DNA from: a virus | Lineage: Duplodnaviria; Heunggongvirae; Uroviricota; Caudoviricetes | Direction: 5' to 3' (one strand) | DNA: 6,521 bases | Virus record (IMG/VR): IMGVR_UViG_2534681674_000007 | Shown: piece after piece, positions 1,901-5,428 of the stretch | Position numbering within the stretch: the stretch's first letter is position 1 | How the letters are laid out: each line of letters begins with the position of its first letter | Program-made: the position numbers and the translations under genes | Notes under the pieces: generated by a model | What the model saw: the letters and a program-made list of their open reading frames with translations, nothing else | Told to the model about the DNA's origin: nothing | The model's database searches: none

Positions 1901-3277
1901 TCATACGTCAGCCCCTTGTGCATATCGTCTGCCACGTGCAGCGGGTGCATTTGATGTTGTGCAAATCTGTCTGGCTTCATCCTGGTCACACGCAACAAAG
2001 TGTCCGTTGCAGAACCGCTGGTAAACCGTACCAAGCGAGCCAAAACGGTTTTTCGTCACGATGATTTCAGCAAATGGCGCGGCGCTACTGTTCTCGTCAT
2101 ATACCGCTTCCCGATAGAGCATGATGATTGAGTCTGCGTCCTGCTCAATGCTTCCTGAATCACGCAAATCTGCGTTTGTCGGGCGTTTATTTGGTCGCTT
2201 CTCAACATCGCGCGAAAGCTGACTCAGGGAGATAACAGGCGTTTTCAGGTCTTTCGCCATCGCCTTCAGGCTTCCGGAGATGTGAGCAATTGCAAGGTCG
2301 TTGCGGTCTGCTTTCGGCTTCTCAATCAGGCCAAGATAATCCGCCATGATGAGTGACAGGTTTGGATTTTCCTGTTTGTGCCGTTCTGCGATTGAGCGTA
2401 TTTCTTCGACCGATAACCGCGATGCATCGACTACCCATACATCCAAATCTGCAAGCTGACTCATGCCGTTAGCAACACGCGCCCAGCCTTCGTCATCCAT
2501 CGATGCAGGATTTCGCAGCACGCTAACCGACATCCTCCCGGCGTTGGCAATGCTCCGCTCTGCAATCTGCAATGCGCTCATTTCCATTGAGAAAATCAAT
2601 ACTCCGCGCCGGACGTCAGAACCAGGAATAACGCGGCTTGCAACACCTTCGGCAATCTTCAGCGCCAGTTCGGTTTTCCCCATACCAGGACGAGCGGCGA
2701 TAATCACCAGGTCTTCCGCGTTCATCCCTCCGGTGATAGCGTCAAGTTCTTCGATTCCGGTCTTCAGGGTATCGGACTCTTCTCCGTTCCTCAGACGCCT
2801 GTCAAGCGTGTCAGTGTAGTCAGTAATGATTTCCCCTAACCGTACAGGTTTAACCTCGTCACTGGGCTTTCTGATGGCTGAAAGACGCTTTACAAGCTCA
2901 TCCATCGCCTGACTCGATGCGTCGATGGTTCCGCTCTGAATTGGTTCACGCATTTCATCCATGATTTCCAGCACCAGACGGCGGTGATAGTTATCCGCGA
3001 CCATTCCGGCATATCCCTTCAGGTTTGCGGCGCTCGGGCAGTTTTTGCTGGTCATCAGGATTGACGTGAAATGCTCCTCTCCGCACGCCTCGGCAACCAT
3101 CAGCGCGTCGATTATGTTTCTGTTTCGCGCCTGCTTGCGGATAACCTCGAAGGCTTTCCGGTAGAGCGGAATTGAAAACGCTTCCGGCTCCAGCGTTGCA
3201 AGAACGTCACTGGCGGTTGGAGTTAATCCACCAATCAGCAGGCCACCGATAACGCTCGCTTCGATATCCTGTCTCAT
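1901..3277 (-). CDS. replicative DNA helicase, DnaB family (phage P22 gene 12-like)
   Basis: 458-aa translation has DnaB hallmarks: N-terminal [13 protein letters not shown], Walker [26 protein letters not shown], and C-terminal [36 protein letters not shown] at 3277..3275 overlaps the upstream gene stop (ATGA); SD GGGGGA upstream. Confidence 0.92.
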
Positions 3278-3846
3278 GCAATCCCCCTGTCTGCAAACTT
3301 CCCTTCCCGTACTCCCGTTAACGAATCTTCCCTCAGCAGGTAATCAAAATCTGCCGTCCAGCCAGTGTCGTTGTCTCCGAAGTAAAACGGCTTGGCCTGA
3401 TGCACAAACGCCCTGACATACGCTCTGAAACCGTCCACGTTTGGCGTTTTCAGTTGTGGGATGATTTTCTTCAGGCGGCGTTTGCGTTTCTCGTTGACCG
3501 CAACAGCGTGTGGCAGTCTGTCACCGACTTCGGTGTTGTAGGCGTTCAGGAAGGATTCGTAGTCGATTCGTTCTGCCTTGCGACGTTCAGGTTTAACCTG
3601 CCCATCGCCTCCCCCATTGGGGGGTAGGGGGGTATTATTTATATTCTTGTTAATACCTTCTTGTTCATGATGTGCGGTTGTTTGTGCGGCTTCATGTGCG
3701 CTTTCATGTGCGGCATGTGCGCTGAAAGCCGCGCCATTACTGTCTTCGTCATGTGCGGCATCATGTGCGGTTGTTTGTGCGGCTTCATGTGCGGGTAAAT
3801 TGTCCATTTTTTGAGCATATTCATGGTAATTTGTGATGGTTATCAC
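3274..3846 (-). CDS. replication initiation protein, lambda O / P22 gp18-like, N-terminally truncated at the IS junction (linker plus C-terminal domain only)
   Basis: ORF opens with GTG at 3846..3844 immediately adjacent to the IS end; the in-frame stop upstream lies inside the IS terminus. The 5' third encodes AH[E/D]AA-type repeats, then an Asn/Gly/Pro-rich linker, then a C-terminal domain (..[25 protein letters not shown]..) resembling phage replication initiator C-termini. Sits immediately upstream of and translationally coupled to the helicase. The N-terminal iteron-binding domain is absent. Confidence 0.6.
3666..3795. repeat. iteron-like tandem array: about 9 copies of (C)ATGTGCG(G) at roughly 12-bp phasing, including an exact 31-bp direct repeat (3670..3700 and 3763..3793)
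   Basis: ATGTGCG at 3670, 3694, 3706, 3715, 3751, 3763, 3787 and TTGTGCG at 3683, 3776. ATGTGCGGTTGTTTGTGCGGCTTCATGTGCG is repeated exactly 93 bp apart. Lies inside the O-like gene and is followed (in the direction of O transcription) by an AT-rich tract at 3633..3655. Confidence 0.6.
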
Positions 3847-3888
3847 TGAACCGCCCCGGGTTTCCTGGAGAGTATTTTATCTGTGAAC

Positions 3889-4776
3889 TCAGGCTGCCAG
3901 ATCATTATTTCCGATGGAAGCATAATAAGCTTTTTCTGCTTCTGCCGGAGGAATATGGCCCAGCCTTTCCAGCAATCGTCGATTGTTATACCAGTCCACC
4001 CACGTTAGTGTGGCCAGTTCCACTTCTGTCCGGTTTTTCCAGCTATTACGGTGTATTACCTCCGCTTTGTAAAGACCATTGATGCTCTCAGCCATCGCGT
4101 TGTCATACGAGTCGCCAGTACTCCCTGTTGATGCCAGTAATCCGGCTTCCTTAAGCCGCTGCGTGTAGGCCAGCGATACATACTGAGAACCTTTATCACT
4201 GTGATGGATTGTGCCGGACGGCCGACGGGCCCACAACGCCTGCTCCAGTGCATCCAGCACGAATGTCGTTTCCATAGACGATGAGACTCGCCACCCCACG
4301 ATACATCCGGCAAACACATCAATGATGAACGCCACATAGACGAAGCCCTGCCATGTGCTGACGTAAGTAAAATCAGCCACCCACAGCTGGTCAGGACGTT
4401 CTGCCACGAACTGACGGTTTACGCGGTCGCCTGCGGAAACGGCTTTCCGGCTGACGGTAGTACGGACCTTTTTACCCCGGAGAACACCGGCAAGTCCCAT
4501 AACCGCCATGAGGCGCGCCACTGTACATCTGGCCACCCTGATACCTTCGCGTAACAACTGGCGCCAGACTTTACGCACACCGTACACCTGATGATTTTCA
4601 TCGTATACGCGCTGTATCTCTCTCTTCAGCCAGTCATCGTGCTGCGCACGGGCACTGCGTTTATCCGGATGATGTCGCTGTTGCTGACAATGGTAATACG
4701 TTGACGGGGCAATATGCAGTTCGCTGCATACCGGTCCGACCCCGTACTGCTCACGCAGCTTATCCAGCAGCGGCAT
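3889..4776 (-). CDS. IS629-like transposase OrfB (DDE catalytic domain, 295 aa)
   Basis: Contains the DDE triad context (..LWVADFTYV.., ..HHSDKGSQYVS.., ..DNAMAESINGLYKAE..) typical of IS3-family integrase-fold transposases. In -1 frame relative to orfA, with overlap at 4776. Confidence 0.9.
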   Translation of the reverse strand: MPLLDKLREQYGVGPVCSELHIAPSTYYHCQQQRHHPDKRSARAQHDDWLKREIQRVYDENHQVYGVRKVWRQLLREGIRVARCTVARLMAVMGLAGVLRGKKVRTTVSRKAVSAGDRVNRQFVAERPDQLWVADFTYVSTWQGFVYVAFIIDVFAGCIVGWRVSSSMETTFVLDALEQALWARRPSGTIHHSDKGSQYVSLAYTQRLKEAGLLASTGSTGDSYDNAMAESINGLYKAEVIHRNSWKNRTEVELATLTWVDWYNNRRLLERLGHIPPAEAEKAYYASIGNNDLAA

Positions 4777-5102
4777 TATTTTTTCCAGAGGCGGTCGAAC
4801 TCCGCCTTCGCAAAATAAGCGGAAGCCTGGCGAAGGATATCGTTACTGCGGCGCAGTTCACGATTTTCACGTTCCAGCTCTTTCAGACGCTGACGTTCAG
4901 CGGTGGTGAGTCCACCATCACCACTCCCGGTATCCCGCTCACGCTGACGAACCCACACACGCAGAGTCTCTGGTGTACAGCCAATCTTTGGGGCAATGGA
5001 ACAAATTGCCGCCCATTGTGAGTCATATTCGCCCTGACTTTCCAGAACCATACGAATCGCCCGCTGACGGACTTCGGGGGAAAAACGAGTATTTTTAGTC
5101 AT
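4776..5102 (-). CDS. IS629-like transposase OrfA (HTH DNA-binding subunit, 108 aa)
   Basis: [51 protein letters not shown]... with a leucine-zipper-like C-terminus ([30 protein letters not shown]), typical of IS3-family OrfA. Ends in AAA AAA TAA overlapping the orfB ATG. Confidence 0.9.
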
Positions 5103-5293
5103 CCTGTTTACCTCTTTCTCAGGGAGTTTAGTCTCCAGGATTTCCGGGGCGGTTCATTACCGATATCGATACATCAGGAATATTTGATTCAGATGATATG
5201 ACTATCAAAGCCGCCTGAGCGCGGCTTTACCGCATACCAATAATGCTTCACGAGAGGCATTTTCGTTATGCAATCAAATATAAGGAGTTACCC

Positions 5294-5428
5294 ATGATGC
5301 ACTTTCAGCTCGCGGGTAGCGGCGTCATGTCCGCTTTCTACCCGCACGAATCTGAATTATCACGCCGAGTTAAACAATTAATCAGAGCAGCAAAGAAACA
5401 ACTGGAGGCGTTATGCGCAATGAAATAG
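5294..5428 (+). CDS. small hypothetical protein (44 aa)
   Basis: ATG 5294 is preceded by TAAGGAG with a 7-nt spacer; translates MMHFQLAGSGVMSAFYPHESELSRRVKQLIRAAKKQLEALCAMK. The ORF-track upstream start at 5243 has no SD. Confidence 0.4.
   Translation: MMHFQLAGSGVMSAFYPHESELSRRVKQLIRAAKKQLEALCAMK

Follow-up and report, generated by a model that had tools for sequence, protein, structure and literature searches.

Introduction

IS629 is among the best-known insertion sequences (IS) of Shiga-toxin-producing Escherichia coli, and both its organisation (two ORFs in a −1 frameshift arrangement) and its ALIL pseudoknot are already known from Rfam and from RefSeq annotation. The ALIL pseudoknot is said to have been described as a frameshift stimulator in IS3411 (by Mazauric et al., in 2008), and two motifs near the end of orfA, TTTTG and AAAAT, reportedly both act as −1 signals in IS629 and give rise to two fusion proteins (work attributed to Chen & Hu, 2006). 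On a broader scale, a review states for IS3411, and for 27 or more further IS elements, that the shift site is followed on its 3' side by an apical-loop/internal-loop pseudoknot (PMC5009743), while a systematic study of slippery tetramers combined with a pseudoknot arrived at the ranking A_AAG >> U_UUC > U_UUU > ..., in which U_UUU belongs to the tetramers that respond to the pseudoknot and is, when bare, only moderately shift-prone (PMC4066793). Furthermore, IS629 is known for gene inactivation and deletions (PMC9943667).

Here we analyse an IS629-like element carried by the window (i.e. the whole stretch of 6,521 nt under study), for which the original prediction, made from the letters of the sequence, had proposed that an A6 run directly before the orfA stop codon is the site of programmed −1 frameshifting. 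We compare its ends, reading frames, RNA structure and surroundings with those of related copies, and weigh the A-run against a U-run situated further upstream.

Results

Identity and boundaries of the element

Judged by its sequence, the element is an intact IS629/IS1203-type insertion sequence of the IS3 family (Table 1), since the megablast matches, the whole-profile match of its transposase and the IS629-named members of its protein cluster all point in this direction. In megablast searches the entire 1310-bp unit matched thousands of E. coli records, the identity over the full 1310 bp amounting to 99.9% for two E. coli genomes and to 98.8% for many copies of E. coli O157:H7 (the latter annotated with 'IS3 family transposase, programmed frameshift' and with an 'AL1L pseudoknot' feature). 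By the ISfinder convention, isoforms share about 90% DNA or 95% protein identity; the 98.8% DNA identity, a figure obtained against the O157:H7 copies, lies above the former limit. A direct comparison with one O157:H7 copy (L004) revealed 16 substitutions and zero indels, and the termini proved to be free of substitutions over the left 68 nt and the right 146 nt (none after IS position 1164). Both inverted repeats (25 bp each) are intact and end in 5'-TG...CA-3', as the IS3 family requires. Moreover, the 90% protein cluster that includes the window transposase contains entries named 'IS629 transposase OrfB' and 'IS3-like element IS629 family transposase', and the label 'IS629-like' given in the original prediction thus agrees with DNA and protein comparisons alike.

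Table 1. Features of the insertion sequence and its junction with the replication gene (window coordinates)
Feature	Coordinates	Strand	Basis
Replication gene of a lambdoid prophage, truncated by the IS to its 3' part; the apparent GTG start is internal codon 106	3274..3846	-	protein comparison
IS629/IS1203-type IS3-family insertion sequence, complete, 1310 bp	3847..5156	-	full-length megablast matches
Right terminal inverted repeat (IRR), reverse complement TGAACCGCCCCGGGTTTCCTGGAGA	3847..3871	-	22/25 positions match IRL
orfB, 295 aa from ATG, −1 frame, DDE catalytic core, starts MPLLDKL	3889..4776	-	Pfam HTH_21, rve, rve_3
ALIL pseudoknot (Rfam RF01497)	4705..4821	-	120.2 bits
ALIL stem-loop 2	4705..4744	-	RF01497 alignment, minimum-free-energy fold
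Flagged site TGG AAA AAA TAA TG: A-run (A_AAA_U), then the orfA stop overlapping the orfB ATG	4774..4787	-	read from sequence
orfA, 108 aa, HTH domain and coiled coil, stop TAA, ends ...DRLWKK*	4776..5102	-	ORF list, Pfam HTH_Tnp_1
orfA/orfB overlap, 67 nt, both frames open	4776..4842	-	orfB frame open from 4842
ALIL stem-loop 1, GGCGG-AGUUCGA-CCGCC	4790..4806	-	RF01497 alignment, minimum-free-energy fold, 100% of cells paired in 23 relatives
U_UUU_G slippery motif, zero-frame GCU UAU UUU GCG	4811..4815	-	read from sequence; first conserved block of the Rfam ALIL model
Left terminal inverted repeat (IRL), TGAACCGCCCCGGAAATCCTGGAGA	5132..5156	-	22/25 positions match IRR

Reading frames and the transposase

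The catalytic residues of OrfB are legible as D (in ADFTY), D (in HSDKG) and E (in AMAES), with 35 residues from the second D to the E, and the Pfam rve domain scores 92 bits over profile positions 2-101 of 102. The comparison with four other copies shows 1-4 amino-acid substitutions in OrfA and 0-9 in OrfB, and premature stops are absent from both proteins. A fusion of the two products, as modelled, combines HTH_Tnp_1, HTH_21 and a complete rve domain (Pfam), and the modelled OrfAB fusions match the NCBIfam model NF033516 ('IS3 family transposase') from end to end (363-368 bits at a cut-off of 160, profile 1-369 of 369); a fusion made at the U-run scores 367.6 bits and one made at the A-run 363.1 bits. 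The 67-nt overlap between orfA and orfB is the only place for a productive −1 shift. The earlier claims that both frames are intact and that orfB lies in the −1 frame held throughout: comparison with the four other copies revealed no disabling change, the inverted repeats are likewise intact, and no stop interrupts the −1 frame at the junction. On these grounds the copy looks functional, and its competence for transposition appears plausible.

The U-run and the ALIL pseudoknot

At the U_UUU_G motif, as read from the sequence, a slip by −1 would let tRNA-Phe pair with UUU once more. An Rfam scan of the window returned a single family, RF01497, whose untruncated match begins at CGCUUAUUUUGC, covers 117/117 model positions and far exceeds the gathering score of 50 (E = 1.1e-31). 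Stem-loop 1 starts 4 nt 3' of U_UUU_G, which is the usual place for a 3' stimulator and is compatible with frameshift stimulation. Six base pairs connect the apical loop of stem-loop 1 (GUUCGA, 4800..4795) with the internal loop of stem-loop 2 (UCGGAC, 4739..4734), and the 45-nt spacer left between the two stem-loops contains the A-run. By the published ranking of tetramers (PMC4066793), the U_UUU motif of this IS would be a moderate one.

The A-run, the stop and the start

The sequence of the minus strand confirms the arrangement that had been proposed for the junction, with TGG AAA AAA TAA at 4776..4787 and an ATG that extends two bases further (to 4774). As the last A of the TAA stop (4778..4776) is at the same time the A of the ATG (4776..4774), orfB is shifted by −1 with respect to orfA. 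For the composite AAAAAATRATG we counted one occurrence in the window, where shuffled sequences lead one to expect 0.02, while bare A6 runs are nothing unusual (3 found, 6.1 expected); the signal would thus consist of the run together with stop and start in their context, and not of the A-run alone.

At the A6 run AAA can re-pair to AAA in the −1 frame, downstream of which the orfB frame is open. As a mark of a stimulator at a slippery site we took an RNA structure located 5-9 nt downstream, and none was found in this interval 3' of the A-run: the next 34 nt fold at z = −0.35 relative to shuffles, no hairpin immediately 3' of the run rose above shuffled controls, and the nearest structure in this direction is stem-loop 2, which begins 33 nt downstream. 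The adjacent stop codon is hence left as the only candidate stimulator. Furthermore, the A-run (A_AAA_U, region 4783..4778) is situated 33 nt downstream of U_UUU_G. It lies beyond ALIL stem 1, so that a ribosome positioned on it has already melted this stem and the pseudoknot cannot act there. A role of the A-run as a second shift site is nevertheless plausible.

Conservation among relatives

Relatives were collected by scanning one genome per species, which yielded 80 loci with 47-98% identity to both ORF products, each of them anchored on the orfA stop codon. In approximately 37 distinct relatives (47-98% protein identity) the U-run was found at the same codon and followed by GGCGG-N7-CCGCC, and U-run and stem are kept in every relative that retains the two-frame layout (down to about 50% protein identity). 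The more distant relatives often carry the U-run as a full heptamer (e.g. GCU UUU UUC or GCU UUU UUU). The A6 run (AAA AAA) is present in 21 of the 23 distinct enterobacterial IS629-like sequences (which are not independent of one another); about 14 ALIL-bearing relatives at a greater distance lack it and have other sequence in its place, such as GCG AAG TGA or AAG AGU UAA. The stop/start overlap itself (TGATG, TAATG or ATGA) is common even in relatives without the A-run.

For the RNA structure, 23 distinct sequences were aligned and scored with the Rfam secondary structure, to which the apical/internal-loop pairs were added as a pseudoknot helix. Standard pairs occupied 91.5% of the cells, compared to 34-46% when the partners were slid by 1-3 columns, and the pseudoknot helix (4800..4795 with 4739..4734) was paired in 94.9%. 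At one pair of this helix 11 sequences have C:G and another 11 have U:A (a compensatory exchange); as this may represent a single event that divides two clades, we regard it as supportive and not as decisive. Some relatives (L042, L006, L045 and L073) no longer have the two-frame layout: their orfA and orfB matches share one frame or stand at +1 to each other, or the region is degenerate. Decay of the copy, or indels within its recoding region, probably accounts for these cases.

Placement of the frame join in databases

Both possible fusion proteins were modelled for five copies and looked up in NCBI as exact sequences. All five fusions made at the U-run (with the junction after ...AYF) are present, among them RefSeq proteins annotated at the fetched loci; that of the window copy is WP_432704390.1, found on a single contig (AEZJ02000010.1, assembly GCA_000194215.2), which is the window. 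Current RefSeq entries join the frames at the U-run, the protein annotated for the window included. The modelled A-run fusions of the five copies had no exact match in NCBI, an absence which is in part a matter of annotation convention (older entries read ..WKKLM..) and is for this reason not counted as biological evidence. Two older NCBI entries of the cluster, P0007 (99 contigs) and P0009, contain ...DRLWKKLMPLL... and thus join at the stop codon, so NCBI contains both placements. We stress that these database joins are annotation choices and not experiments. In addition, a 295-aa 'IS629 transposase OrfB' is annotated separately in NCBI (P0012).

Prophage context and the insertion locus

The IS adjoins the Val106 codon of the replication gene, whose first 105 codons are missing and whose remaining fragment is identical in 189/190 residues to residues 106-295 of a 295-aa protein of E. 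coli 2013C-4974. The other flank (the 5157..5428 side) carries cIII, kil and a Rad52-family gene. In relatives that are IS-free or differently interrupted, these two flanks have between them the remainder of the replication gene together with cII, cro and a repressor of the LexA family (about 3.2 kb in ECONIH6), i.e. the prophage immunity region is missing from the window. These observations suggest that an IS-adjacent deletion, or recombination between IS copies, removed the immunity region and left a defective prophage, while a mis-join of the draft assembly at the IS junction is also possible. The replication-gene/IS junction is shared contiguously by no complete E. coli genome in the collection searched.

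The element lacks a 3-bp target-site duplication, its flanks being TAA and GTG. We had considered this as proof of rearrangement and downgraded the argument, since, of the other full-length copies that we looked at, no more than about a third have a perfect 3-bp duplication; the missing duplication is a property of this copy's history and not of the family. For the IRL junction, the sole full-coverage match among complete E. coli genomes consists of two pieces spread across 227 bp of the record. In E. coli RM13322 (NZ_CP050498.1, 1415529..1415613) we observed a match to window positions 5132..5216 (85 nt in one piece, 95% identity). This match covers the flank plus IRL, the initial 25 nt of the IS, with no IS annotated at the place, and may represent an isolated inverted repeat or what an excision left behind.

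Genome ERL05-1306 was examined as a candidate for an insertion at the same site and rejected: it matches over 5160 bp, but its IS sits in the helicase gene. Separate IS629/IS1203 copies indeed interrupt a DnaB-type helicase gene in both E. coli 2013C-4974 (L002, 5418..6727) and ERL05-1306 (L087), and from these copies in related prophages the replication module appears to be a recurrent target of IS629. The DnaB-type helicase gene of the window itself (1901..3277) is intact. Within the replication gene (3664..3806) we also noted four overlapping copies of a repeat with a period of about 12 nt (CATGTGCGG-type units), which resemble the origin iterons that lambdoid phages have within this gene and which encode, at the same time, a repetitive peptide, AH(D/E)AA.

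Discussion

The anatomy of the junction and its open frames were observed directly, as were the match to Rfam, the pattern of conservation and the annotation in databases; that ribosomes slip at the U-run or the A-run, in what proportions they do so, and that OrfB is re-initiated, is what we infer. We consider it likely that the window copy contains an intact IS629-type recoding region, with U_UUU_G and ALIL as its main shift signal, the A-run as a second site and OrfB re-initiation as a possibility. In such a region most ribosomes would stop at TAA (4778..4776) and release OrfA as a small DNA-binding protein, while a minority, aided by the ALIL pseudoknot, would slip by −1 at the Phe codon of U_UUU_G (4815..4811) and produce a 404-aa OrfAB transposase. 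The A-run would most likely act as a second, structure-independent 'shifty stop' site, at which tRNA-Lys, held on AAA in the P site while a slowly decoded stop occupies the A site, may re-pair on the overlapping AAA. Slippage of a further minority of ribosomes on this last AAA would yield another fusion protein, distinct from the first in 11 residues, and the TAATG overlap may allow terminating ribosomes to re-initiate and make OrfB alone.

Among the alternatives, we regard as possible, if rather unlikely, that the TAATG overlap serves chiefly the translational coupling of OrfB as a protein of its own, with the A-run being two Lys codons (possibly providing an A-rich and unstructured start region); frameshifting further upstream would be compatible with such an arrangement. 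The recurrence of the stop/start overlap in distant relatives without the A-run (e.g. L057, L071, L074, L083 and L059) is in line with it, as is the separately annotated 295-aa OrfB, and the OrfB of IS629 is cited as lowering the frequency of transposition (PMC5771124). Against it, no strong Shine-Dalgarno sequence can be read 5' of the orfB ATG, the Met of orfB is also simply a part of the fusion protein, and coupling leaves the near-exclusive use of AAA over AAG in the IS629-like clade (whose sequences are not independent) unexplained.

A further reading, which we consider unlikely, elaborates on the two-site arrangement and holds that in the IS629 clade an ancestral heptamer (U_UUU_UUC/U) decayed to the present tetramer, as Tyr replaces the first Phe, and that the stop-dependent site at the A-run compensates for this loss. 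Two isoforms that differ in 11 residues would then be made, and the TAA that this copy has in place of TGA would alter both their ratio and the start of OrfB; were this true, the isoforms would differ at the end of the coiled coil.

That the A6 run before the stop is itself the (main) programmed −1 site producing OrfAB, as the original prediction had it, seems to us distinctly improbable. The run does permit tRNA-Lys to re-pair in the −1 frame with the stop immediately next to it and the −1 frame open, it is conserved within the IS629-like clade, some NCBI entries place the join there (P0007 and P0009), and it is reportedly one of two functional signals in IS629. It lies, however, 3' of ALIL stem 1, which a ribosome at this position has already unwound; the sequence separating it from the nearest 3' structure folds no better than shuffles; it is missing from all of the more distant relatives that keep U-run and ALIL structure; and both the current RefSeq joins (the window protein included) and the slightly higher score against the IS3 transposase model favour the U-run. 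Of the earlier proposal, the part that stands is a −1 shift leading to an OrfAB that matches the IS3 transposase model over its whole length, as well as the A-run as a plausible site with an open −1 frame; not supported is the A6 run as the conserved, structure-assisted site. We thus view the flagged A-run as at best a secondary site, and the placement as incomplete and not wrong.

In bacteria, efficient transcriptional realignment calls for runs of about 9 or more, and the present run has six A's. The fusion of the frames by RNA polymerase slippage (adding or removing an A in the mRNA), which the homopolymeric run and the realignment known for some IS elements (PMC5009743) might bring to mind, appears highly improbable, as the conserved ALIL structure favours a ribosomal mechanism.

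Returning to the reading with U_UUU_G and ALIL as the main signal, its value is one of annotation: the join of the transposase belongs at the U-run and not at the A-run, and beyond this correct annotation the importance is small. The position of the copy at a rearranged prophage fits the role of IS629 in gene inactivation and deletions (PMC9943667).

Comparison with known systems

At the A-run, the window copy resembles an IS1-type 'shifty stop' in that a stop codon follows directly in the zero frame and the frame beyond it is −1, and differs from it in that the run is second to a structured site and is without a 3' stimulator. In IS1 itself a homopolymeric run (A6C, near the insA stop) stands immediately before the stop. 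To the IS629/IS1203 elements of E. coli O157:H7 and Shigella the copy is alike in its 1310 bp, inverted repeats, 108-aa orfA and −1 orfB, and it shares with them U_UUU_G, the stem-loop and the A6 junction. Where the window copy ends orfA with TAA (differences at 4777, and at 4771), the O157:H7 copies have TGA; this exchange turns AUG AUG into AUA AUG in the −1 frame, so that orfB has one start instead of two (295 vs 296 aa) and the fusion reads ..EKIM.. and not ..EKMM... The residues that distinguish the window copy from O157:H7 IS629 (I16 and R54 in OrfA; R52, N244 and W262 in OrfB) are none of them catalytic. With regard to the ALIL family (RF01497), the window copy has the full 117-position match, both stem-loops and the loop-loop pairing just 3' of the U-run; it pairs GUUCGA with UCGGAC (including one G:U pair) where the consensus pairs GCUCGA with UCGAGC, and it places a tetramer (UAU UUU) before the structure where several relatives place a heptamer.
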